Shown here: positions 29,285-59,383 of the stretch, in pieces
Layout: each line of letters starts with the position of its first letter
How positions within the stretch are numbered: the first letter of the stretch is position 1
Virus record (IMG/VR): IMGVR_UViG_3300036546_000248
Direction: 5' to 3' (one strand)
Length of the DNA: 64,000 nt
From: a virus
Lineage: Duplodnaviria; Caudoviricetes
Translations under genes and position numbers: made by a program
The notes under the pieces: model-generated
Database searches by the model: none
What the model was told of the DNA's origin: nothing
The model's input: only the letters and a program-made list of their open reading frames with translations

Positions 29285-30148
29285 TTATGCCACATACAGA
29301 CGATGCAGACCCAACGGAATACCAGGACCTGTCAACAGCGTAGCACGCATCATCGAGAAGAGATTGCTACGATCTTTACGCATGTGATCAAGACGGGTTT
29401 GGCGTTCACGCTTGTAACTCACCAGACTTTCGAGATGTTCGAGTATCTCAGTTTCAGGCTCGTTCAGTTCGCCGGCGGAGCGCAGGGTCCGGATCAAACG
29501 TTCGCTACGTTCCAGGTCTTCTTCAGCGGTCACCACCGGAGCGGGGGTAACTTTGGTGATGGTTTCTTCTTTACGCACCTGTTCGACATTCGAGGTTTCG
29601 GCCGAGGCTTCTTCCTGAGTGGCGACACGCACCGGAGTCATACCTGCAGCAATCATGGCCTGAACCAGGCTGTCTTCATCAGACAGCATGTCAGGATCAA
29701 CCTGCTTGATGGCCTGATCGACGGTGGTCATGGTGGCAGCCAGAGCACTGCTGATCAGTTCTTCACCAGAGACATTACCGCCTTTGGCGTCGTACTGACG
29801 AATCATGTTGTTGAAGCTGGCCATGATGATCGCCTTTTCCATCATGTTGCAATGGAAGAACAGCGGATTGATCAGACCCATCTTCTCGCAGTAGATGGCG
29901 AATGCGTCCTTGACCGGAAGGTCGTGACCCGGCTCGAATTTCACAGCCCCCTTCAGGCGCTTATTGGTGAAAGTGATTTCGCCTTTATCGTCCACTGTGA
30001 TGTTGACCGGGTAGTTGTAATCGCTGATCAGGAAGATACGTTCTTCCTTGTCAGTGGCCACGCCGGCGTAGAGTTCGTCACCTACCCGCCCGCCATTGTC
30101 CATCAGTTGGACAATAGCTTTGATCAAATTGATGTTGTTAACTTTCAT
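29285..30148 (-). CDS. Hypothetical early protein
   Basis: Monocistronic, between an early-type promoter and a terminator. Confidence 0.75.
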   Translation of the reverse strand: MKVNNINLIKAIVQLMDNGGRVGDELYAGVATDKEERIFLISDYNYPVNITVDDKGEITFTNKRLKGAVKFEPGHDLPVKDAFAIYCEKMGLINPLFFHCNMMEKAIIMASFNNMIRQYDAKGGNVSGEELISSALAATMTTVDQAIKQVDPDMLSDEDSLVQAMIAAGMTPVRVATQEEASAETSNVEQVRKEETITKVTPAPVVTAEEDLERSERLIRTLRSAGELNEPETEILEHLESLVSYKRERQTRLDHMRKDRSNLFSMMRATLLTGPGIPLGLHRLYVA

Positions 30149-35904: not shown

Positions 35905-38814
35905 ATGCCACTGTCCATTGAAGAGATGAAGGCCCAGATCGACTTGGTTCGATTCAATCCTTCAGCCATCTGCCAAGTGGCACTGGATGTGTTGGAAGAA
36001 GTCAATACAGGTACTCGCCTGATTGTTGATCCCTCCAACCCGTTCATGTTCCTCTTGGAAGCCAGTGCGGTCAACGCATCAGCTGCGATGTCTTGCTTTG
36101 CCGATTACAGCCGTAAACAATACGGGGTGATGGCACAAGATGAAGACGAAATCTACATGCACATGTCGGACAAGGATTTCTTGGGTCGCTTTGGTAATCC
36201 GTCGTCCACTACCATGGTGATGCTGCTGAGCCTTGAAGAAGTAAAAGCCAAGGCTATTCAGACCGAATTGACCAACACCCGGAAGTTGGTGATTCCTCGC
36301 CACACCACGTTCACGGTTGCCGGTTACAGCTTCATGATGCAATACCCGATCGAGCTACGGGTGATGAGCCACGGTGGCTTGAACGTGTTGCACGATGTCA
36401 GCCGCAAGTCACCGTTCATGAGTCTGGAAACAAATGTGGTGGAACATGAGATCGTCAACATCGACGGCACTGTGTTCATTTGCATTCAGATCCCGGTGTT
36501 GCAACTGAGTTCTGATATCTACTACCCCAAAGTGTCTATGGGTACTTTGACGGAAGCCACGTATACCTTCTCCGGCCAGTTCCATTTTGCTAGGGTTTAT
36601 CGGTCGTTGGAGAACGGTGAGTGGGAGGAGATGCAAACCACCCACAGCGCCCAGGTCTTTGATGTCAACACCCCTACAGCTGTTCTGAAGGTGTACGAGC
36701 AATCGGTTCGTGTGAGCATCCCTCTTGTGTACCAAGCCAACGGGATGGTCACTCGTGAGCTGCGGGTTGAGATCTACAGCACCAATGGCGAGATCAACCT
36801 GATCCTCAACAACTACCCACCGAATGCCTACAACGCGATGTGGTTGGACTACGACAATGACGACGATGGTCGTTACGTGGCGCCGCTGAAGACTTTCAAC
36901 GCCATCTCGGTGTATTCGGAAGCGACAGTAGCGGGCGGTACCAACAGCATGTCCTTTGATCAAGTGCGGGAACGTCTGATCAGTACGGCTTTGCGTGAAC
37001 AACAACTGCCAATCACCAGTGTTCAGTTGGGCGCGACCTTGGAAAACGCCGGTTTCAGCGCCGTGGTCAATACTGACTACGTCACTCAACGCCAGATCTT
37101 GGCTACACGTACACTCCCCACCCCTGAGGACCTCAGTGTCTATACAGGAATGGCTTCCACTATGGGGATGCTTCAGTGTACGGCCGATGAGATTCGTAAT
37201 CTCCACGGTGTGTATGACAACAACAAACGGCTGACCCTGACACCTAAGGTGTTGTACCGTAACACCGATTCGTTGTTGACCATCATGCCGGAAGCGACCG
37301 TCCAAGGACTCGAAGCGCTGCGTGTTACTGATCTGTTCACCCAAGAAGTCAGTGGAAAGAACTACCTCTGGTCGCCGTTCTACTACGTCTGGGGTTTGGC
37401 CGGTGATTACTTTGATGTACGGGCTTATCACTTGGATAGTCCAGACATCACGTCCAAAGCGTTTGTGGAGGAGAATCCGACGCTTGGGTTGGTGGTTGCA
37501 ACCGACTCATACGCCATTGAAAAAGTGGCTGCGGGCTACCGTGTGGTGGTGACAACTCGTTCAGGTCCTGTTTATAAAGAGCTGGATCTGGAACAACGTC
37601 ACGTGGTCTTGAGTTTTGAGGCACCGAATGAAAACGGCCGAGCATCGTTGGCCGGGACGCTGTTGTACGTAAACGAGGAAACCAGTGAAGCTGCGTATGA
37701 GTTCTTGGTGGAAACGCAGTACGATCTGGATGAAGAGCATCACCTGATCGTAACGAACTTCACTATCTTCGGACAAGTCCAGCCTTGCGGTATTCGTCTC
37801 AAGGACAAGTTCACGCTGGTCTATGGGGTGAGTAACTACCAAACGCAAGACATGCAGTTCACTGACATGGATAAGTTGACGGACACCACCTTGGTACCGG
37901 CCAGTCACTATGCGATTATCCAAGAAGAACTCAATTTTGTTTTGGGTTATTCGCTGGACCGTTTGTGGACCAATGGTCGTAGTGTGGTAGGTAGTGAAGG
38001 CTATCTGACATACGAGACTGATGTACCGGCCTTGTACGAAGCCACGCAATATCGCCGTGATCCTGTCACCGGCAGTTACGTCATTCGCATGGTAGATGGT
38101 CAACCGGATTTCGAGATCCTCCACAATATCGGAGACCCGGTGTTGGTCAATGGCGAGCCTCAGTACGCACACCGTAAAGGTGATTTGGTGTTGGACAGCA
38201 ATGGGCAACCCATTGTAGCCAGTCCGCGTAAAGTGGTACGTCAGGTGGATCTGTTCCTGGTGGATGGTCTTTACTACTTTGCCGACGATGAAACCACGTT
38301 GACCTATACCCGCTCCATTCCGAATACGGTGGTTGGGTGGTTGGAAAACGATATCACCATGGCATCGAAGAAGATGCTGGAACTGACCGACCTGTACTTC
38401 TATCCACAACGAACCACAGGTTATGTGGATGCGCTGGTCTTGGAAGGCTTTGAGATTCGCTTGGAGGTTGAGCAGGCGCTTCACATTGAGCTGTACATGA
38501 CCAAGAGTGGGTATGAAGATCTTCCGTTGCGAGCCTCTATCGAAACCAGTATCTTGGAGATTCTGGCCGATGAGTTCAAACGGGATACGGTTCGTTGCAT
38601 CGACATCGAAAACCGAATCATTGCGTCTGCTAAAGACCAAGTGATTACGGCGATGGTGTCAGGGTTGGGTGGCTCCAGTAACTACCGAGTGGTAACGCTG
38701 GTCGATCAGTCTGCACGCTTTGGCATTCGCAAAAAGCTGCAGGCCTTGGCCGACGGTACCTACTCGGTGGTGGACGATGTCACCATCAGCTTCCTGCGAC
38801 ACACCAACGCATAA
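35905..38814 (+). CDS. Large baseplate/virion structural protein (gp87-like by synteny)
   Basis: 969-aa ORF, NPF.FLLE N-terminus, GG...M.F..VRER segment. Confidence 0.7.
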   Translation: MPLSIEEMKAQIDLVRFNPSAICQVALDVLEEVNTGTRLIVDPSNPFMFLLEASAVNASAAMSCFADYSRKQYGVMAQDEDEIYMHMSDKDFLGRFGNPSSTTMVMLLSLEEVKAKAIQTELTNTRKLVIPRHTTFTVAGYSFMMQYPIELRVMSHGGLNVLHDVSRKSPFMSLETNVVEHEIVNIDGTVFICIQIPVLQLSSDIYYPKVSMGTLTEATYTFSGQFHFARVYRSLENGEWEEMQTTHSAQVFDVNTPTAVLKVYEQSVRVSIPLVYQANGMVTRELRVEIYSTNGEINLILNNYPPNAYNAMWLDYDNDDDGRYVAPLKTFNAISVYSEATVAGGTNSMSFDQVRERLISTALREQQLPITSVQLGATLENAGFSAVVNTDYVTQRQILATRTLPTPEDLSVYTGMASTMGMLQCTADEIRNLHGVYDNNKRLTLTPKVLYRNTDSLLTIMPEATVQGLEALRVTDLFTQEVSGKNYLWSPFYYVWGLAGDYFDVRAYHLDSPDITSKAFVEENPTLGLVVATDSYAIEKVAAGYRVVVTTRSGPVYKELDLEQRHVVLSFEAPNENGRASLAGTLLYVNEETSEAAYEFLVETQYDLDEEHHLIVTNFTIFGQVQPCGIRLKDKFTLVYGVSNYQTQDMQFTDMDKLTDTTLVPASHYAIIQEELNFVLGYSLDRLWTNGRSVVGSEGYLTYETDVPALYEATQYRRDPVTGSYVIRMVDGQPDFEILHNIGDPVLVNGEPQYAHRKGDLVLDSNGQPIVASPRKVVRQVDLFLVDGLYYFADDETTLTYTRSIPNTVVGWLENDITMASKKMLELTDLYFYPQRTTGYVDALVLEGFEIRLEVEQALHIELYMTKSGYEDLPLRASIETSILEILADEFKRDTVRCIDIENRIIASAKDQVITAMVSGLGGSSNYRVVTLVDQSARFGIRKKLQALADGTYSVVDDVTISFLRHTNA

Positions 38815-42080: not shown

Positions 42081-44132
42081 ATGTCGCTGCCCGTACCTAG
42101 CGAGAATATTAAAGGCATTGAATGTAAACACGCGGTTTACACACTGCCGAATGACGATGGTGATGGGGATGCCCTGATCGTCAAAGAAGTCATTCACACC
42201 AAAGACGGTCAATTGATCCCGAACCTCAAGATCATCGAAAACTACAAGCGCGATTTTTTCTATGCGCGTGAAGGTCAACGTAACTATACAGAAAAGAAGA
42301 CTCAAGAAAAAATTAATAACCTGCAACGTTACACCTGCACCCAACGTAACCTGCTCAGACAGATTGCGCGGGCTAAAGGGGTGGGTACTTTGCGTGGGGG
42401 TTTGCGTCAGATTGCACGCGACCCTTATTTGTACGGGTGTGACATCACCACACCCACGCTCCTTAAACGTGAATACCAACTGCGTTCTCCAGATTGCTTG
42501 TCCCCCAATGGCGTAGCGGTATTCGACATCGAGACGGATGTTGTCCACGGTACTGAACAACCCATCCTGATGGCCTTGACGTTTAAGGACAAAGTCTACC
42601 TGGCTGCGACCAAGTTCTTTGTAGGTCAAGACGTTCGCTTCTTGGAAAAGCTTAACAAAGCCATTGAAAAGTACTTGGAGAAGTACACTAAAGAGCGCAA
42701 CATTACCTACGAACTGGAGATCGTTGAGACACCCGGTGAAGGCATTCGGCGTTGCTTTGCCAAAGCCCACGAATGGAAACCTGAATTCGTCACCATCTGG
42801 AACATCGACTTCGATATCCCCAAATGCGTCAAGCAATTGGAAGCTGAAGGAATTGATCCAGCTCAAGTTTTCAGCGATCCATCGGTTCCCGAGCGCTATA
42901 AGTTCTTCCGCTACAAGCAGGGCAACGCTACTAAGAAAACCGCTTCGGGTCGAATCGATTCGATTCACCCAGCCGAACGGTGGCACGTAGCCGAATGTCC
43001 AGCGACGTTCTTTCTGATCGACAGCATGTGTGTGTACAAGCGTATTCGAATGGCTAAGCAAAACCTGCCTTCGTACAGCTTGGACTACGTAATGAAGGAG
43101 GAGTTGTCGGGGCTTGGTAAGCTTAAGTTCGAAGAGGCCGACGAATATGCAGGGTTGGCATGGCACGTGTTCATGCAGACCTATTACAAAGTCGAATATG
43201 CGGTCTACAACATCTTCGACTGTATCGGTGTAGAACTGTTGGATGAGAAGACCAAAGACTTGCAGCTGGTTATCAGTACCCAGTCGCGGGCTTCGGAATA
43301 CACCATCTACAATTCGCAACCTCGTCGTTTGGTGGATGACTTCTATTTCTTCTGTCGTGACCGAGGCTATATCCTAGGTTCGTGTAGCAACGAAATGGTC
43401 CATGAATTGGACGCTTACGTTGTTGGCATGAATGGACACATCGTGACCTTACCCTCTCACCAGACAGTGGATAACGGCGTCCGCGCTATTAAAGAACTGC
43501 CTGATGTAAGGACCTACATTCGTCGTCACGTAGCCGACTTGGATTAATTAAAAGTCCCTTCAGACTGGAAGGTCTGAATGTAAACTCTTCTAATTGCTGG
43601 AAACCCCTGAGAGCTGTTCCACCACTGCGAGGCGAAAGCCAAAGCCACGGTTTGAAAACGGAACGGATTGGGCAACCGTGGGTCCTAAGGACCCCTTTAG
43701 CAGCCAAGCTCCTCTATGCGAAAGCAGTGGAGAAGGTTCAACGACTATCCCGCAAGGGAGTAGGGACAAGCGTCCCGAAACGGAGAGCACCCGACCCACC
43801 GTATGGTGAAGGGTGATGATATAGTCTCGGCATGTGGGGAAAGCCCACAGCAGTGCTTGATCGCACGGGGTAAAGTGTTGCGACTTAACCCGAAGATACC
43901 GATTGTCAGCACGTACCCGAACGTTCAGGTGATCCTGAATATCTCGCGTGAGACCACGCTTTACGAACTGTACAAGATCAAAGGGTGTAATGAATACCAA
44001 ATGAGAATGGCTGGGTATAACCTGACAGGCGGTCACGTGAATGCGGTAGAAATTGCAGTCGACATCATGAAAGCCCCGAGCTTTGATCGGATGCTGGCAG
44101 AGTTCCTTATGGACCATCCAGACGCAGCATAA
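42081..44132 (+). CDS. Divergent family-B DNA polymerase-like protein (DEDD exonuclease plus motif A), spliced join(42081..43544,43902..44132), 564 aa; phiKZ gp82-like
   Basis: VFDIETD, WNIDFD and YNIFD exonuclease motifs; splicing restores VADLD/IVSTYP (DxxSxYP). Confidence 0.8.
43545..43901 (+). mobile_element. Group I self-splicing intron, 357 nt, no ORF
   Basis: P AATTGCTGGAAA (43592), Q TAGCAGCCAAG (43698), R GTTCAACGACTAT (43736), S GATATAGTCT (43818); P7 GACUAU/AUAGUC; P1 GGAU/GUCC with U-G at the 5' splice site; terminal G at 43901. Confidence 0.92.
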
Positions 44133-45985: not shown

Positions 45986-46444
45986 TCAGTCGTCGTAGGA
46001 AGCGAGTTCCTCTGCAATCTGTTCTGCCTGTCGAGCACGACAGCTACCACAGACTTCATAGACCGGACCGTTTGAACCTTCATCGATGTCACGCGTGTAA
46101 CGAAGGTCTTTCTGGGTGGTGACTTTCTTACACCACTCACATTGAGCTTCGTCTTCGGCATGCCTCTCGGTGAAGTACTGCTGAAGCTCCTGCTCGAGCG
46201 TATAACACTCTTCGCAGTAATGGTAATACTCAGCGCCGAACGAATCGGTTTCGCCTTGTACACGCACCGTAGCGTCGTTCTCACACTGCCACTCTTCACC
46301 CTTGGCGTACTGAAGCTTCAGAGCATCAGATGCTTTATTAGCATCGATGATCTCCTTCATGGTTTCGAAGTAGCCGGATTGTTCGAACTCACATACTGTG
46401 GATTCACGAACAGTGGTGACACGACCTGGAAGATTACTGAACAT
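45986..46444 (-). CDS. Cys-rich putative zinc-binding early protein
   Basis: CxxC pairs (CEEC, CEWC, CGSC), QGETDSFG and RDIDEG motifs; AAGGAG RBS; first gene after an early promoter. Confidence 0.75.
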   Translation of the reverse strand: MFSNLPGRVTTVRESTVCEFEQSGYFETMKEIIDANKASDALKLQYAKGEEWQCENDATVRVQGETDSFGAEYYHYCEECYTLEQELQQYFTERHAEDEAQCEWCKKVTTQKDLRYTRDIDEGSNGPVYEVCGSCRARQAEQIAEELASYDD

Positions 46445-46493
46445 AGTGTTCTCCTTAGAACGAGGGGGGAATAAGTGGTTTGGTTAATCCACT

Positions 46494-46528
46494 CACCTAG
46501 GTAATATAGATCTGAGATTTTTTTATTT
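46494..46528 (-). promoter_or_regulatory. Early promoter
   Basis: AAATAAAAAAATCTCAGATCTATATTACCTAGGTG. Confidence 0.75.
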
Positions 46529-46978
46529 CGGTAGGCTCAAATCGAAGCATTCTGCGAACTCCAAGACGAACTCATCCATCCAATCTTGTACGTACATCAC
46601 GTTCCAGTAAGGGGTGGCTTGAAGTCGTTTAAAGTCCAGTCGGGAAACTCGTTGTAACTGACCCAAGATCCTCTCGATTCTCCGCATGAGGAAAGGAACC
46701 TCCTCCACTTGGGTTTGTACAGTTTCACGATAGACCACCAAATACGGATGGTCTTGGTGCACACTAAGCTCACTGACAACCACCTCGGCTAAATACAACC
46801 GAGCCCCTATGTCCACTTGGGCCTCAATCGGGAGGATGTGGCCATAGTAGTTGTAGAGGGAATCGGAAGTCAGGTTGAGGTGTGGGGTGCGCGGTACAAT
46901 CTGGGTAACAAACCGATCAAAGTCGGTAATCTCACGATTATCAACTTCAAGAACCAAATACCTGATTACACTCGCCAT
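46523..46978 (-). CDS. Hypothetical protein
   Basis: RBS AGGAG. Confidence 0.65.
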   Translation of the reverse strand: MASVIRYLVLEVDNREITDFDRFVTQIVPRTPHLNLTSDSLYNYYGHILPIEAQVDIGARLYLAEVVVSELSVHQDHPYLVVYRETVQTQVEEVPFLMRRIERILGQLQRVSRLDFKRLQATPYWNVMYVQDWMDEFVLEFAECFDLSLPK

Positions 46979-46987
46979 GGAGCACTC

Positions 46988-47416
46988 CTACGTTTTTGGT
47001 TTTGCACAACTGTCGATCTGTTCTAAGAGAGCCACTTGGGCACGCGCTTTAAGGTACCGACAGGCCTGTTTGCGTTTGCGCCTAACCCAATGTGCGTCTG
47101 GCGGAAGTTGGTTATGCTTATTAGCCGAGACCTCTTGGGTGGACGTGTTGGAGAACAGTAACCACAACGGATAATGTCTCAGTCTACCCCCTACCGCTCG
47201 CAACACTATCGCTTGGCGAAAGGTCCGACGAGCCGCAGGAGATGCATCTTTCGGATTCTCAAGGTAGGTGCGAATCAAATGGGCGTTACTACCTTCGGGT
47301 TTGACACGACGCACGCGAGAATCTTTCGTACAACCCGCCCGCATAAAGACCACTGGCTGTTCAGGTTTGGGTTCAGTGAAACCTAATGCCGACAACAAAG
47401 AAGCGGGAAACTCCAT
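46988..47416 (-). CDS. Basic hypothetical protein with P.A.WVRRK motif
   Basis: RBS AAGGA. Confidence 0.65.
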   Translation of the reverse strand: MEFPASLLSALGFTEPKPEQPVVFMRAGCTKDSRVRRVKPEGSNAHLIRTYLENPKDASPAARRTFRQAIVLRAVGGRLRHYPLWLLFSNTSTQEVSANKHNQLPPDAHWVRRKRKQACRYLKARAQVALLEQIDSCAKPKT

Positions 47417-47475
47417 GTGACATCCTTAGTTTAAGTTTATTCAAGGTATAGTTCAAAAAAGTACGATATTACTAT

Positions 47476-47645
47476 GACTACAGGCAATGAACATTCATTG
47501 CTCACGAGGAGGTGATCCACTGAGGGGTCTGGTCCTGCCGAGACGGCACCATCCAGCCCAGTACCAGCGCCTGTATAGTGACTGCTGAGAAGCAGCCATG
47601 ACTTCAGCCTCTAAAGCCCTCACCCGAAGGTGAGGGCTTTATGCT
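47476..47645 (+). ncRNA. Candidate structured small RNA with 13-nt complement to the 16S rRNA 3' end
   Basis: ORF-free gap; multibranch fold closed by TACAGGC/GCCTGTA; GAGA-loop hairpins; ends at a bidirectional terminator. Confidence 0.45.
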
Positions 47646-47647
47646 GC
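47612..47647. terminator. Bidirectional terminator
   Basis: AAAGCCCTCACC-CGAA-GGTGAGGGCTTT-ATGCTG. Confidence 0.85.
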
Positions 47648-48115
47648 TTAGGGCTTTTGGTGACAGAACGAATCGGGCCAATAGTGCAGGACTGCATCCA
47701 TGGTGGTGGACTTGGCTTTGACTAACGAGATCCCTTCGAAATGCGGGAAGAAGAGTTTCTCGTAACGGGGGGTACTGACCTCCACTGTAATCGGTCGACA
47801 GTCTTCGCTGGCGACGAAGAAGACGATGTCCTGACTGAGCAACGGACTCTCCAACCACTGCTGAGGGGGCTTTAAACCCCAGCCCACGTAGCGAGTCATC
47901 ATTGCCTGATACATCTCAGGTGTGATGCCAGAGGTGGCGATTGGGTGAACAAAATAGTCGGGTGAATTGAAGCCTTCGGGAACTTCGCACATAAACTCAA
48001 TGTTACCCAACTGAGAACGAGCCAACGCATAAGGGAATGGGGGTGGGGCGTTCAGTAAAACGGGTTCTGGTGCGGGTTGTAGAAAGTCTACTTTACAACG
48101 TACTAACACGTACAT
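47648..48115 (-). CDS. Hypothetical early protein
   Basis: Monocistronic after an early promoter; GAGGA RBS. Confidence 0.7.
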   Translation of the reverse strand: MYVLVRCKVDFLQPAPEPVLLNAPPPFPYALARSQLGNIEFMCEVPEGFNSPDYFVHPIATSGITPEMYQAMMTRYVGWGLKPPQQWLESPLLSQDIVFFVASEDCRPITVEVSTPRYEKLFFPHFEGISLVKAKSTTMDAVLHYWPDSFCHQKP

Positions 48116-48157
48116 GGATGCTTAATCCTCGTTGCGTTTAAACAAGTATGTCACTTG

Positions 48158-48189
48158 CCTATGGGTAATATAGGTTTCAAATACTTTTT
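48158..48189 (-). promoter_or_regulatory. Early promoter
   Basis: AAAAGTATTTGAAACCTATATTACCCATAGG. Confidence 0.65.
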
Positions 48190-48199
48190 ACTGGAAGGG

Positions 48200-48235
48200 G
48201 CATAAAAAACATCAGGTGAGTTACCCCACCTGAGT
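48200..48235 (-). terminator. Terminator
   Basis: TCAGGTG/CACCTGA stem followed by TGTTTTTTATGCC. Confidence 0.75.
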
Positions 48236-48236
48236 C

Positions 48237-48695
48237 TTAAAGGATGCGGTTGTACAGGTAGATGTGGACGGGAAGGTCAATGTCCGTCAATTTCTCATGG
48301 AGGAGGGGGCGAAGGAACTTAATGTAATCAAGCCCCCCATAACCACAACCCAAAGGCGGAAGCCCCAGTTCTGTGATCCCCATCTCTTTATAGTTCGCCA
48401 CAAGGTAATCCAGCCCCTCGATGACGTACTCTGGTTTAGACGGATTTTTCCAGTGTGCTTTGGTGGGAAACAATAGGACCTGATGACGTGACTTTGGGAT
48501 CTTATACAGTTGGGGTTGCCCCACCTTCAATTCACCCTTGTCACACAGATCTTTGTAGAAGTCGAAGAGCCCCCTCACCCGTTGTTTCATGGCCAATGCC
48601 AACCCATTCCCCATCACCCCTACCGTATTAACCGGGGCTGTGATAGTTTGCAACCGGGTATCAAACAAGGACCCTTCGCCTTCATACACGATCAT
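48237..48695 (-). CDS. Macrodomain protein (DarG-like ADP-ribosyl hydrolase)
   Basis: GSLFD..TI..PVNTVGVMGNGLALAMK, LLFPTKAHW, LPPLGCGYGGL. Confidence 0.85.
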   Translation of the reverse strand: MIVYEGEGSLFDTRLQTITAPVNTVGVMGNGLALAMKQRVRGLFDFYKDLCDKGELKVGQPQLYKIPKSRHQVLLFPTKAHWKNPSKPEYVIEGLDYLVANYKEMGITELGLPPLGCGYGGLDYIKFLRPLLHEKLTDIDLPVHIYLYNRIL

Positions 48696-49132
48696 CGCTT
48701 CGCGCCTCCTAAACCCACACCAGCGGCGGCCTGTGCCTGCTGGGCTGCCCGAATTTGCTTTTGAGTTTCAGCCGTCATGCGAGCCGCTTTCTCAGAAGAG
48801 ATTCGTAACATCAAAGCACAGTACTCGCGGGGCATGTTGAGGAAGTCCACAATAGACACCCCCCACTCTTTATGAACCTCGTACAGATGGTACTGATAAA
48901 AGGTTCGGTAAAGCGTCCCGTATTCTGACACATCTTCTTTTGGCTGATACTCAACCAACGCCAAGGGGTTAGCAGATGGGCTGCCGTGATCACAAATCCC
49001 GTACTGGGTTTCGTAGGCATCGCGCATCACCACCTGCGCCGCTATATTGTCCAACTGCTTTCCTTGTTCAAGGATTTTATCCAGCAAGGTCGGCTTGTTA
49101 TAAAACCGTGCCCCGAAGCCCGGTAACAACAC
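48692..49132 (-). CDS. Conserved phiKZ-like protein
   Basis: ATGA overlap with the macrodomain gene; WGVSIVDFLNMP motif. Confidence 0.6.
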   Translation of the reverse strand: MLLPGFGARFYNKPTLLDKILEQGKQLDNIAAQVVMRDAYETQYGICDHGSPSANPLALVEYQPKEDVSEYGTLYRTFYQYHLYEVHKEWGVSIVDFLNMPREYCALMLRISSEKAARMTAETQKQIRAAQQAQAAAGVGLGGAKR

Positions 49133-49161: not shown

Positions 49162-50679
49162 TTAAAGGGAGGACTTTATGAGTACCTTGTAGATGCGTTG
49201 GTTGAGCAGGGTAAAAAAAACTTGCGCCACATCAATCGGTACGACGTACGGACTGAACTGGGCCTCGTCTTCCTTAACCTGGTTGGCCTTACACACCGGG
49301 CACTCGTGCTTGGGCAGACCGATTACCGAAACAGTCACCGAGTTGATGTACTCACTCACCGCTGCCAAGGTGGTGGTGCGGGTCTCTTCATCGGCAGTCA
49401 ATACACCCATGAGGTTTTCGATCGTGTCACGGTCAGTGCCGATTTCCGCCTCTTCGATATGCACTTCCTTCACCCAGTGACCGTACTGACGCAGGTTGGT
49501 CAAACGCCCCTGGTTGGTGATGTAGGCATCGCGCTCATCGCCACGGATGTTCTCACCGAATGCACCTTCCATCACCTTGATGATGTTGGCAATCCAGGCG
49601 TTGCCCGAATTGTAGTACTGTTCGATGGTTGGGACCGCCAGAGTGATGGCGATTTGGTCGGTGATGGACACCCGACGTTCTTGGTTGTACTTGTGCTCTT
49701 CGGCGTAGCGCTTGAGGTCTTCGTCGGACATCCGCGCCTTGCGCTGAGACATGCGCTTGGTCTGCCATTCCGACAGCGCCGCACGGTTGGTCCACATCAG
49801 CTTGCTGAGATTCAGCAGGGCTTCGAACACATGGTTGCACACCTTCTCGGTGTTGATACAGCCACGCGAATACGGGTAACCGTTCGGGTAGATGGCCGAT
49901 GCCAGACCCCAAAGGATCAACGGGATATCGGTCACCAACACAATGCTTTCCAAGTACTTGGGCGACATTTCTTTAGCGTTGGTGTCGTAGACGTGCTGGA
50001 GTGCAAAATCCAGCAGATCGTTGATCAGGTGAACCGCGGTGTTCGAAAACACCAGACCGTTGGTCATACGACCCAGCGTCACTTTTGCCGAACCGACACG
50101 ACGCTCCAGTTCGAGGATCGACGCTTCAGACGGCGCTTTGAAACTGACCCAGATACCAGTATGCCACAGCGGTACTTGGTGGATGGTACCCAAACCCAGC
50201 GCAGCCGTCATGCGCATGACAGCACGCTCGCCAGTCAGGACAGTACCGGACTCTGCAAAGCGCGGACGGGAGATGCCCATGGGTTGGCCAGCCGACTCAA
50301 CGGTCTGTTGCCAGTCACCGCCTTCTTGGTCCAGCGCTGCTTGGAAGGGTTCGTTGCGCAGCAGGTTGGCAGAACCACGTTCGAGCGATTCAACCCAACG
50401 GCGAGTACCAGCATCACCTTCGACCTCGATGTTCGGGTGGTTATCACCGGTCTCTTTGAGATCGCCCAGTGTCCCGTTGATGAACGTCAGGTGTAGGTTG
50501 GGATCGGCGAAGATCGCTTTGGCATCGGCACCGGAGTACGGTTTGTCGATGGGGTACTGAAGACGAACATTGAGGTTAACCGCTTTCGGGGCGTAGCTAC
50601 TGGTCGACTTCGAGTTCAGGGTGTTCTCGACACCTTCTTCGGGTGCGTTCTCGGGTGTTGGCAGTTCGTTCTCAGACAT
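49162..50679 (-). CDS. Conserved core protein (phiKZ gp77-like by synteny)
   Basis: Start MSENEL at 50679; VPLWHTGIWV motif; C-terminal CPVC. Confidence 0.65.
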   Translation of the reverse strand: MSENELPTPENAPEEGVENTLNSKSTSSYAPKAVNLNVRLQYPIDKPYSGADAKAIFADPNLHLTFINGTLGDLKETGDNHPNIEVEGDAGTRRWVESLERGSANLLRNEPFQAALDQEGGDWQQTVESAGQPMGISRPRFAESGTVLTGERAVMRMTAALGLGTIHQVPLWHTGIWVSFKAPSEASILELERRVGSAKVTLGRMTNGLVFSNTAVHLINDLLDFALQHVYDTNAKEMSPKYLESIVLVTDIPLILWGLASAIYPNGYPYSRGCINTEKVCNHVFEALLNLSKLMWTNRAALSEWQTKRMSQRKARMSDEDLKRYAEEHKYNQERRVSITDQIAITLAVPTIEQYYNSGNAWIANIIKVMEGAFGENIRGDERDAYITNQGRLTNLRQYGHWVKEVHIEEAEIGTDRDTIENLMGVLTADEETRTTTLAAVSEYINSVTVSVIGLPKHECPVCKANQVKEDEAQFSPYVVPIDVAQVFFTLLNQRIYKVLIKSSL

Positions 50680-50681
50680 TG

Positions 50682-51131
50682 TTACACCTGCGGGTTCTGA
50701 TTGAGTTGGTTGAAAAGGTCGGTGATCTGCATAGCAGTCGGCACCACGACCAATTGATATGACGTGATCCACTGATCATAGGCCTGTGCCACATCCATCA
50801 GGAGGGCCAGTTTAGGCAGGTCGACTACGCCACCACGGTGTTGATCGACTGCAGCGTTCAGTTGATTCAGTCGTGTACTGAAATCCTGAACGTCGCGATT
50901 CAGTGTATTGGCCAGTTGCATCAGCGAAGCTTTATCCGCAACGCGTGCCACCAGTTCCTGATTGCGCAGAAGAGCAACCACCTGTGTGGGCGACTGGTTC
51001 AGCTGGAAGCACTGAGCTTGCAAATGGCTCAGATCATTCCAGATGTTTTCGAAGTCTTTGCGCTCCTGAATCAGCTCTTTAAGACTGTTCGGCCCACGCT
51101 TGACGTAGGAAGGGTTGTGCTTACGGGACAT
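50682..51131 (-). CDS. Helical hypothetical protein
   Basis: Start MSRKHN with GGAA RBS. Confidence 0.65.
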   Translation of the reverse strand: MSRKHNPSYVKRGPNSLKELIQERKDFENIWNDLSHLQAQCFQLNQSPTQVVALLRNQELVARVADKASLMQLANTLNRDVQDFSTRLNQLNAAVDQHRGGVVDLPKLALLMDVAQAYDQWITSYQLVVVPTAMQITDLFNQLNQNPQV

Positions 51132-57406: not shown

Positions 57407-59383
57407 TTAACGTACGCCGGATTTGCCCACGACCAGATAGTCGAGGGGATGGTCAGGACGGTTGTCCAAGATGAAGGTTCGGATATCGCTGAGTACCGCC
57501 CCCTGCTTCTCATAGGCCATGGTGGCCGACAAGCTGCGGAACCACATGTTGTCCTCGTAATACCCCACTACACCATTCAGCCGGTCAACCGGCATACGGT
57601 GGTCATGGTTCTCGGGGTCAATTGCCATGGTGGCCAACAAGATCGCTTCCAGGTGCGCAATGTTCACACTGAGCTTGGAGTTGATCAGGTCGTCAAACGC
57701 AAACAGGGCTTCCTCGGTGGTGCTGTAGGAGCCTGAGTTCATGCGCTTGGAGGACTTATCGCGAGCCTTGTTCGCACTAGGCGAGGCCTTGATGAAGTTC
57801 TCAATCATGGTCATGTATTCCACAGTGTTCAGGTGACGCTGCGGCAGTTCAAAGATATCGTCCTCGAAGTCCCAGTCCGACAGATCGATCAGGAAATCAC
57901 CACGGGAGGTGGTGGTCCAACCGACTTCCTTGAGGAAGCTCAAGAACAGCTCACCGAAGTAAGCACGTCGAGAACCCATCGAGACAGAGACCGTCACAGT
58001 ATTGATCGCCCCGTCATTAATAATCTCCAGCTGAACTTCAACCAACTCAGCCAGACGTTCCATCGGCAACTCACGGACATGACGTACCCGATGCAGGTCA
58101 GTCAGGCGTGGAGCATACTGATGCGGGACAATCAACCGCACTTCATCGGCAATTTTCAATTCTGCCATTAGGCGCAGTTTCGATTCGTCGCTACCCTCCC
58201 GTATGTAGTATTGATCGTGTTCCGAGATCTTGAAAGATTCCACGCTAGTACTGCCATCCAGGTGTTTGGTCGACAATACGCGCTGCGACAGAATCTCACA
58301 GAGCGTGGTGGCACTGACGTGACCCAGTACCGTCTTGGCCGGAATGGCGTTGGCCAGTTCGCCGAAGCAGGTGGCACAAACACCGTATGGATCAAGGTGT
58401 TGACACTTAAGGATGCTGCGGGTTTTCAGGGTACGACCGATCAACTTGTTACGGTCGCGCTTGATGATGGGTTTGAGTTTTCCATCATCTTCCAGATAGA
58501 ACTTACCCAACAGGTTCTCGAAGTTGGAGGAGGTGATCTTCCACTCGATGTAATGTTGGCTACCGCAGTCGCCTGGATGGATGTGCTTCAGCGTCTCACA
58601 CACCAGCTGCATCCGACGGTTGAAGTACTCAGAATCAGCCACTGGGTCTTTGGCAAACCACAGGGCCTTGGACGCCGAGCGAGACTCGATCATCGATTCG
58701 TACAGCTTGGTGATCCCGTGGGTGTAACCTTTCAGCACCGGAGTGTGGAAGATGCGTGAGTTGATGTCCGTCAGATAGCCTCGTACCGAGACACACTGGA
58801 GAATCTGACCCATGCTCACCAGACCTGACTTAGCCACCTTGGCCACAGGGTTACCCACCAGTTCGTTCTCGTCGAGCAAAACCCCCCGCACGGCGGTGTA
58901 GGTGTGTTCGATAGAGTTCGGGGACGGTTTGGTGTTGTCGTTAATTTCCTTGATCTTGGGATGGGTGACGATGTCGATGAAATCAAGAATGCAGATACTG
59001 CTCACCGACTGCGGGACGTTCCAGGTGAAATCGTTGTAGATGTCCTGGAAGGTGTCGTACACCACTTGTCGGGCAGCATCCAGATCCAACAGATGGCCTT
59101 CGCCGCGTTCATCGAACCAGTCTTTGGTTTCAAACAGGGAGGTTTCAATCAGCTCGGCGGTGGTGCGCATACCGAGGCGAGCTTTACCGATGTGATAGCG
59201 TTTGTACACAGGGGCTTGCGGGTAGAGTCGGTTGAACACCATGGTGTACCAACTGTACTGCGTCAACCGGGTATCAGTTTCAAGGTCCCCATCATCGAAC
59301 TCCAGAATAAAGGGACGGTCCGGCATGGCCCACAGTTGAGCAGTAGACATAGCCAGAATCTGGCGCACGGGAATACGTTCCAC
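57407..59383 (-). CDS. Non-virion RNAP beta-prime-like subunit (phiKZ gp74-like)
   Basis: SGLVSMGQ, ESRSASKAL, HPGDCGS, RSILKC..VCATCFG, LSTKH. Confidence 0.88.
   Translation of the reverse strand: MERIPVRQILAMSTAQLWAMPDRPFILEFDDGDLETDTRLTQYSWYTMVFNRLYPQAPVYKRYHIGKARLGMRTTAELIETSLFETKDWFDERGEGHLLDLDAARQVVYDTFQDIYNDFTWNVPQSVSSICILDFIDIVTHPKIKEINDNTKPSPNSIEHTYTAVRGVLLDENELVGNPVAKVAKSGLVSMGQILQCVSVRGYLTDINSRIFHTPVLKGYTHGITKLYESMIESRSASKALWFAKDPVADSEYFNRRMQLVCETLKHIHPGDCGSQHYIEWKITSSNFENLLGKFYLEDDGKLKPIIKRDRNKLIGRTLKTRSILKCQHLDPYGVCATCFGELANAIPAKTVLGHVSATTLCEILSQRVLSTKHLDGSTSVESFKISEHDQYYIREGSDESKLRLMAELKIADEVRLIVPHQYAPRLTDLHRVRHVRELPMERLAELVEVQLEIINDGAINTVTVSVSMGSRRAYFGELFLSFLKEVGWTTTSRGDFLIDLSDWDFEDDIFELPQRHLNTVEYMTMIENFIKASPSANKARDKSSKRMNSGSYSTTEEALFAFDDLINSKLSVNIAHLEAILLATMAIDPENHDHRMPVDRLNGVVGYYEDNMWFRSLSATMAYEKQGAVLSDIRTFILDNRPDHPLDYLVVGKSGVR

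Follow-up and report, generated by a model that had tools for sequence, protein, structure and literature searches.

A candidate structured RNA with a conserved complement to the 16S rRNA 3′ tail in phiKZ-like jumbo phages

Results

We analysed a 64-kb stretch of viral DNA (64,000 nucleotides; the window) in which a 231-nt gap, 47417-47647, lies between two minus-strand ORFs (46988-47416 and 47648-48115). A reading of the sequence alone had pointed to a 13-nt match to the 16S rRNA 3′ end in gene-free surroundings at this place. We find AGGAGGTGATCCA as described, inside the gap at 47507-47519 on the plus strand, and a search of both strands shows it to be the single exact copy in the window. 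The runner-up complement of the 16S tail in the window is an 11-mer antisense within a 658-aa gene, which is taken as a chance match. The 16S 3′ end used for these comparisons, ...GCGGCTGGATCACCTCCTTA, was checked as well and is found in many Pseudomonas and other gammaproteobacterial genomes. The features of the locus are as follows.

46988-47416, minus strand: gene for a 142-aa protein, function not assigned, divergent from the RNA gene
47466-47476, plus strand: start motifs in the sequence, ATATTAC (47466-47472) followed directly by TATG (47473-47476)
47476-47641, plus strand: candidate ncRNA of about 165 nt, member of a chimallivirus family with a 16S-tail complement (covariance model and conservation)
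47479-47485 with 47569-47575, plus strand: P1, TACAGGC/GCCTGTA, closing the multibranch core (fold and alignment)
47486-47490 with 47495-47499, plus strand: P2, hairpin AATGA-ACAT-TCATT (fold and alignment)
47502-47505 with 47512-47515, plus strand: P3, hairpin TCAC/GTGA with loop GAGGAG (alignment)
47506-47519, plus strand: invariant block GAGGAGGUGAUCCA, with 13 Watson-Crick pairs and one G-U pair to the 16S 3′ tail (UGGAUCACCUCCUU; sequence comparison)
47525-47532 with 47553-47559, plus strand: P4, GGG(T)CTGG/CCAGCCC (alignment)
47536-47539 with 47545-47548, plus strand: P4b, cap TGCC-GAGAC-GGCA on the P4 arm; the cap is GAGA or GUGA (GNRA) in two relatives
47582-47595, plus strand: P5, CTGCT-GAGA-AGCAG with a GNRA tetraloop (fold and covariation)
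47601-47612, plus strand: linker ACUUCAGCCUCU with an anti-SD-like CCUCU, which RNAalifold pairs with the block
47613-47643, plus strand: intrinsic terminator AAAGCCCTCACC-CGAA-GGTGAGGGCTTT then ATG, a stem-plus-TTAT(G) motif (covariation and consensus match)
47648-48115, minus strand: gene for a 155-aa protein, function not assigned, convergent with the RNA gene

The products of the two flanking genes have no Pfam or PHROG match, and ARAGORN reports no tRNA or tmRNA in the window. The 142-aa gene is the neighbour that stays linked to the RNA element in relatives, and the 60-nt spacer between it and the RNA gene (47417-47475) is also conserved there. The side of the 155-aa gene is variable, with relatives carrying other sequence or about 1 kb of extra DNA. 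Genes near the element match PHROG families of jumbo phages, and for the 536-aa product of 49162-50772 the best relatives in GenBank come from phiKZ-like phages that form a nucleus (36-37% identity to the Xanthomonas phages Xoo-sp14 and LucasX, 29% to phiKZ gp077); the phages nearest by protein are Xanthomonas and Erwinia phages, at 36-37% identity. The nearest record to the window is a 221-kb IMG/VR contig that is 96% identical at the locus, and the phage can be traced in public runs from shale-gas, groundwater, wastewater and sediment samples. We conclude that the window belongs to an uncultured nucleus-forming phiKZ-like jumbo phage and adds a divergent lineage to the RNA family. Phages of this kind shield their DNA in a protein nucleus and depend for translation wholly on host ribosomes outside it.

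The data support reading 47476-47641 as a self-contained plus-strand RNA gene with its own start motif and terminator, not as an RBS. Both upstream motifs named in the sequence-only reading are present, placing early-like and late-like promoter motifs side by side: ATATTAC matches 7 of the 8 positions of the phiKZ-type early motif TATATTAC, and in the phiKZ late-promoter motif TATG the G is the +1 start site (PMC4666361). P1 starts 2-3 bases past TATG in the window or past TATAG in relatives, where TATAG stands right before P1 and an AAAnnTAC-like box lies about 24 nt farther upstream. The RNA 5′ end is thus predicted at 47476 or a few bases on (range about 47476-47482). At the other end, the terminator matches the phiKZ consensus ...GGBYTTATKYYGT (PMC10914365), and its stem carries compensatory changes at 2 pairs in 3 of 7 close relatives. 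A scan for sigma-70 promoters and generic terminators detected nothing at the locus, as expected, because the phage has its own polymerases. Four metatranscriptomes were compared over 46000-49000, and three runs, from two studies (P8 and P12/P13), have contigs that span 47323/47386-47543/47558 with no mismatch; such contigs are blind to strand, ends and level and may reflect DNA carry-over, a bare stretch at 47560-47780 carries no weight, and we draw no claim of expression from them.

The plus strand folds better than shuffled sequences (-73.4 kcal/mol, z = -4.4). The helices proposed from the sequence alone are all present, except that a P2 of 6 bp is impossible beside P1, C47485 being needed by both. 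In an alignment of the window clade (seven close relatives), 98% of cells are paired in that fold, against 34-43% for slid partners. P4 shows one compensatory change from C-G to U-A (in the relative L010) and three changes from G-C to G-U, which pair on the plus strand alone. P5 carries a compensatory C-G to U-A change in three relatives, and its loop, which reads GAGA, GUGA, GGGA or GAAA across relatives, is always of the GNRA type. P1, P2 and P3 are constant within the window clade, so that its sequences are silent on these stems. In other clades P1 shows A-U/G-U exchanges and double-sided changes, and the equivalent of P2 covaries (GTGC/GCAC, GCAC/GTGC, GCGC/GCGC). The 5′ strand of P3 varies as well (CAC, CGC, CAU, UAC), yet it always pairs with the invariant GUG; the pair counts in relatives are CG 7 and UG 3, AU 9 and GU 1, and CG 7 and UG 3.

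The Psa21-like clade alone, in a MAFFT alignment that was not model-fitted, is 95% paired with 7 covarying pairs; none of 500 shuffles is as good and slid controls reach 33-47%. Ten diverse members have 92% of cells paired and 25 of 35 pairs changed on both sides, again with 0 of 500 shuffles as good and slid controls at 28-53%, in an alignment that is model-fitted, which favours structure. In the architecture shared by the members, P1 encloses P2, P3 and a P4 arm that varies; a further hairpin comes next, and the terminator last. Given the window clade alone, RNAalifold instead pairs the block with the linker. We did not take this as the main fold because the compensatory P4 pair of L010 is lost in it; it may represent another state of the RNA. 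We also considered a GGAUC, found in Phabio and in one clade-B terminator loop, as the sequence with which GAUCC could form a pseudoknot, and dropped it because it is not conserved.

The element is carried by six related metagenomic contigs, found through the flanking proteins and by exact-pattern scans. It is 92-100% conserved in these relatives; one of them has just 67% identity in the 142-aa protein, yet about 92-100% in the gap from gene start to terminator. The few differences among close relatives are of RNA type, not of codon type. Divergent copies were recovered by scanning metagenomes for an 18-nt pattern and viral contigs for a 16-nt one, which led to 300-kb contigs and to Pseudomonas phage Phabio. 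A BLAST search with the whole clade-B element L014, which does not require the motif, found Psa21 (80%) and D6 (70%), both of which had been missed by a short BLAST query centred on the block. When the gap and 5 kb around it were compared with GenBank phages by BLAST, terminators matched and nothing else did.

We built covariance model R1 from six divergent-copy sequences. It matches the Phabio element, gives 26.7 bits against the window, and identifies the following elements.

RVTF4: element at 137 bits
phiKZ: element at 212855-213037, between PHIKZ203 (helicase) and PHIKZ204, 37.7 bits
PhiPA3: element at 31.7 bits
Viktualia: element at 30.2 bits
201phi2-1: element between gp304 and gp305, 30.0 bits

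A second model, R2, was built from ten members of other clades and contains no sequence of the window clade (clade A). Run against the 64-kb window it returns one match, full length, at 47482-47643 on the plus strand (36.9 bits, E 1.2e-9), and because of this match we file the window element as a divergent family member. The phiKZ copy is present in 47 phiKZ-like GenBank records at 97-100% identity (43 of them at ≥99%) and is annotated in none of the 47. The covariance search, run with a loose first-look filter that makes it less than exhaustive, gave no credible match in ten chimalliviruses (Xoo-sp14, LucasX, pEa_SNUABM_54, RTH11, FLC9, Eowyn, PCH45, RP31, EL and OBP); the best scores in Xoo-sp14 were only 16.4 and 13.4 bits. 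Because the RNA went undetected in these ten, which include the nearest protein relatives of the window, we do not regard it as a universal chimallivirus requirement.

The window element shares with the phiKZ-type family a multibranch core closed by P1, the P2 hairpin, AGGRGGUGAUCCA at a weak YAC/GUG hairpin, GNRA caps, a hairpin between P1 and the terminator, a TTATG terminator and the lack of an ORF. P1 lies within a few bases of the predicted +1 and encloses P2, P3 and P4, with the further hairpin and the TTAT-type terminator behind it, and the block stands past the P2 hairpin with its GUG paired to a YAC/YRY triplet (P3, TCAC/GTGA). The models align P1 differently in the window clade, and we infer the stem-by-stem homology of P1 and P4 from the architecture. 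The window clade differs from phiKZ-type members in the length of the complement (14 nt versus 17-21) and in a P4 arm that is built otherwise, and beyond the block it resembles them at no more than 60-67%. Its element also sits between two unrelated minus-strand genes, whereas the Pseudomonas-phage members lie beside an SNF2/DEAD helicase: the window has neither a divergent SNF2/DEAD-box helicase gene nor a downstream gp204-like gene. This helicase/gp204 synteny is typical of the Pseudomonas-phage members but does not belong to the RNA as such.

Across the 18 aligned members the block reads AGG[A/G]GGUGAUCCA. The model alignment of these members has 17 invariant columns, 12 of which are AGG.GGTGATCCA, and outside the block the window and other clades are 53-67% alike in a permissive global alignment. 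Psa21 and D6 carry GAGGAGGTGATCCAG exactly, despite overall identities of 80% and 70% to L014. The sequence-only reading had put the chance expectation of the motif at about 0.002, itself calling the estimate post hoc, and had proposed a conservation search as a check; the invariance of the block, which reaches phiKZ, supersedes that estimate. The variable position is A in the window clade, the Psa21-like clade and Phabio, and G in phiKZ, PhiPA3, 201phi2-1 and Viktualia. The change from GGAGG to GGGGG turns an A-U into a G-U pair opposite the 16S tail, and pairing is kept either way. With G-U pairs allowed, the unbroken 16S complement of the window and of Phabio is 14 nt long, and that of the other members 17-21 nt; in several members it reaches the 3′ strand of 16S helix 45, a strand not free in the mature 30S subunit.

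Within the RNA, the loop of the weak 4-bp P3 hairpin holds one half of the block and the 3′ strand of that hairpin the other. The GGRGG core is predicted to be partly masked (unpaired probability 0.05-0.48). The MFE partners of the block are not the same in all members, and this speaks for an intermolecular target. Our comparisons support the 16S-tail complement as the feature under selection: the block is frozen amid drifting, covarying surroundings and has no fixed internal partner, so that an external partner is the simplest explanation, and the 16S tail is the only obvious one. In the window lineage everything except the block and the architecture has changed, and nothing argues more strongly for the block as the working part.

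Discussion

The comparisons above establish an RNA gene, its strand, its fold, its family and a selective constraint on its block. We propose, with a probability of roughly 0.55, that this ORF-less structured RNA is a super-Shine-Dalgarno mimic that pairs with the 16S 3′ tail of the 30S subunit; 30S binding and all its downstream consequences are what we infer from the sequences. The RNA would be transcribed by the phage's own RNA polymerase and end at the phiKZ-type terminator. Its block would base-pair with the single-stranded anti-SD tail of 16S rRNA, and the RNA would sit on the mRNA-docking site of free 30S subunits, itself untranslated. Possible outcomes would be competition with SD-led mRNAs, the tethering, parking or marking of ribosomes, or a 16S tail shielded from factors or nucleases.

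It is unlikely, in our estimate, that the block is kept for some other partner and that the 16S match is a by-product; such a partner might be an RNA-binding protein of the phage or its host, a tertiary contact within the RNA, or another RNA, for instance a phage transcript, that contains CCUCC. One candidate is internal: the CCUCU of the linker, paired with the block by RNAalifold, may bind its GGAGG and so mask it or switch the RNA between states. The block is partly paired in most predicted ensembles, and the GNRA loops suggest that the RNA folds compactly in three dimensions, so that an invariant strand could have a structural role. The linker motif, (A)CCUCU, is however conserved in the window clade, the Psa21-like clade and phiKZ, and is missing from PhiPA3, 201phi2-1, Viktualia and Phabio, all with the block intact; the predicted partners, moreover, vary between members. 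An unbroken match of 14-21 nt to one universal RNA, in which the sole substitution is a wobble-compatible A to G, is hard to explain as a by-product.

Less probable still is a cis-acting leader, an attenuator or ribosome stand-by site for the downstream gene, of which the short RNA would be a premature-termination by-product. In phiKZ, Phabio, Psa21, D6 and RVTF4 the next gene (gp204 in phiKZ, its equivalents in the others) follows the element downstream in the same orientation, and many short RNAs of phiKZ and 201phi2-1 do arise from termination in 5′ UTRs (PMC10914365, PMC11512511). The window-clade element, by contrast, is convergent with the next gene and so has nothing downstream to control. 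The downstream side is variable in relatives, and the Pseudomonas-phage members have a separate TATATTAC promoter between the terminator and the next gene.

We consider it very improbable that the RNA is a very small mRNA of the rreB type, whose extended SD both drives and throttles the synthesis of a short peptide, from either the CTG at 47520 (22 residues) or an ATG frame at 47487-47588. The sequence-only reading had rightly reported that no ATG, GTG or TTG stands at RBS distance (none is found 3-13 nt past GGAGG in the window, where a CTG at +7 stands alone) and had named a 23-codon peptide started at this CTG as the outcome that would overturn its view. The CTG does lie 7 nt past GGAGG in the window clade, but the frame that it opens has 22 codons in the window, 7 in L010 and 37 in L009, and other clades have GTC, GCC or TAA at its position, so the peptide was rejected. 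The 33-codon ATG frame overlapping the motif, which had escaped the earlier reading, fares no better, its stop being lost or moved so that the frame is cut to 18 or lengthened to 48 codons in relatives. A canonical start 3-13 nt past GGAGG is missing in 11 of 13 members compared, the other two (D6 and RVTF4) having an unconserved TTG at +13 and +11, and no reading frame is common to these 13. The substitutions are compensatory in stems and not codon-like.

An Rfam scan of 46000-49000 with E up to 10 bears on the same alternative, and its matches are all sub-threshold: CC2171 at 20.6 bits (E 0.16) and Thr_leader on the terminator. CC2171 is a Caulobacter RNA in which the same AGGAGGUGAUCCA precedes a GUG, as in the rreB-like layout that has been reported for Caulobacterales (PMC5711450), and it (RF01867) appears to be the Caulobacter representative of rreB/rreR. 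Its score is far under the gathering threshold of 75 bits and arises from the common motif and the terminator.

That the minus strand is the functional one, as the 5′ UTR of the 142-aa gene or as an anti-SD mimic (UGGAUCACCUCCU) that masks SDs, is scarcely credible. The earlier reading had offered such a mimic beside a small RNA on the plus strand, and both flanking genes are on the minus strand, which also folds better than shuffles (z = -3.1) and shares a symmetrical terminator stem. We reject it because the G-U pairs of P1 and P3 in relatives, of P4 in the window clade and of the terminator become C-A mismatches there and fit the plus strand only. The TTAT tail of the terminator and the TATG/TATAG start also point to the plus strand, the one upheld here, and the orientation of the element in relatives is kept regardless of neighbours. 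A chance motif in an ordinary spacer, conceivable in that the 13-mer search was post hoc, is refuted by the comparative data, with the motif conserved across clades and the structure covarying.

Carrying the super-Shine-Dalgarno mimic one step further, we suggest tentatively, and with somewhat less assurance than the pairing itself, that jumbo phages from phiKZ to the window lineage make a dedicated ORF-less RNA that clamps the anti-SD of the host 30S subunit. Such a ribosome modulator might bias initiation, park or tether subunits, or shield the 16S 3′ end from RMF-type hibernation factors, RNase R or MazF-like toxins. The phage mRNAs carry ordinary short SDs. To act as a stoichiometric decoy, the RNA would have to be expressed at a very high level, and the SD-led mRNAs of the phage itself would then face its competition as well.

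If 30S binding is true, the RNA would be the first Shine-Dalgarno mimic encoded by a virus and lacking an ORF. For the question of how phiKZ-like phages take over translation, a 14-21 nt match to the ribosome tail gives a concrete hypothesis that is cheap to test. phiKZ, which carries the RNA, is a model open to genetic work, and Grad-seq and long-read transcriptome data have been published for it.

We propose by analogy that the phage RNA works most like rreB/rreR and the STAB-SD elements, but it is encoded by a virus and lacks a cargo. STAB-SD 5′ stabilisers of Gram-positive mRNAs (the cryIIIA leader, the ribosome-protected hbs mRNA) are SD-like sequences with no start codon behind them, which bind 30S subunits and protect the mRNA in cis from 5′ exonuclease. 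The phage RNA likewise has an SD-like sequence without a start codon, and 30S binding is here proposed. STAB-SDs, however, guard a long mRNA in Gram-positive cells, whereas the phage RNA ends at its own terminator, has no cargo and belongs to Gram-negative hosts. In Bradyrhizobium, the 165-nt rreB transcript has a 17-nt SD and co-sediments with 30S subunits; this extended SD brings the RNA to ribosomes and depresses translation (PMC5711450). The alphaproteobacterial rreB/rreR RNAs (Hahn et al. 2016) have a sORF of 14-18 aa, started by a GTG or ATG at the usual distance, and a 16S complementarity of 16 nt or more (PMC5711450). Both they and the phage RNA are short transcripts whose hallmark is a very long 16S 3′-end complement, with 30S binding measured for rreB and the phage RNA known from sequence. 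They differ in that the phage RNA is virus-encoded, has an unrelated fold and lacks a conserved start or frame; the window has no conserved GTG or ATG sORF, and its complement is 14 nt (13 Watson-Crick pairs and one G-U) against the at least 16.

Other short RNAs of phiKZ and 201phi2-1 have been mapped by ONT-cappable-seq and Grad-seq, upstream of gp182 (sRNA005), in the 5′ UTR of p40, which partly sediments with 30S, and in the 3′ UTR of PHIKZ298 (PMC10914365, PMC11512511, PMC8545117). Like the RNA described here, they are short, structured, terminator-bounded and from chimalliviruses; none named in the main text maps to PHIKZ203/204, and none is reported with a 16S-tail complement. Our literature search found no paper describing the phiKZ-type RNA or its 16S complementarity, and a text search for PHIKZ203/204 gave no relevant result. 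The transcript maps of phiKZ and 201phi2-1 also include short-RNA candidates without names, and the phiKZ-type RNA may be one of these.

Conservation and gene linkage of the RNA

The predicted non-coding RNA of about 165 nt, a member of a chimallivirus family that carries a complement to the 16S rRNA tail, lies between two minus-strand genes in the window:

46988-47416, minus strand, 142-aa gene, divergent from the RNA
47417-47475, 60-nt spacer
47476-47641, plus strand, the RNA
47648-48115, minus strand, 155-aa gene, convergent with the RNA
48237-48695, minus strand, macro-domain protein (Pfam PF01661, phrog_335), two genes upstream

Conservation of the spacer, which runs from the start of the 142-aa gene to the TATG of the RNA, nearly equals that of the RNA itself and persists even in a contig where identity of the 142-aa protein drops to 67%. 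The spacer is probably a divergent promoter region common to the 142-aa gene and the RNA. On the other side, about 1 kb of additional DNA separates the RNA terminator from the 155-aa gene in L013/L004 (IMGVR_UViG_3300018411_000022), and the sequence 3' of the terminator also differs in three relatives, L009, L010 and L017. Because this side varies, the RNA is linked to the 142-aa gene only. In the Pseudomonas-phage members (L104, L036, the clade-B element L014, L086, L087 and L093), a AAATCTnAAATCTATATTAC box of the early-promoter type is conserved between the RNA terminator and the next gene.

Other 16S-tail complements and covariance-model matches

Allowing up to two mismatches, the 13-nt 16S complement of the RNA (47507-47519, plus strand) has 9 sites in the window, against 1.5 expected from shuffles. 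After this 13-nt stretch, the longest complement of the 16S tail anywhere in the window is AGGAGGTGATC (11 nt, 58528-58538), which lies antisense within a 658-aa minus-strand gene and is taken as a chance occurrence.

We also compared window positions 47496-47639 with Rfam RF01867 (Caulobacter sRNA CC2171), whose consensus holds AGGAGGUGAUCCA followed by GUG. CC2171 appears to represent the rreB-type extended-SD small mRNAs (PMC5711450) in Caulobacter and not to be a relative of the phage RNA.

The family covariance model gave weak secondary matches, all within 18-25 bits, in three Pseudomonas phages:

37146-37231, RVTF4 (L094)
29344-29489, phiKZ (L109)
42815-42943, 201phi2-1 (L108)

These may be terminators only, or additional small RNAs.
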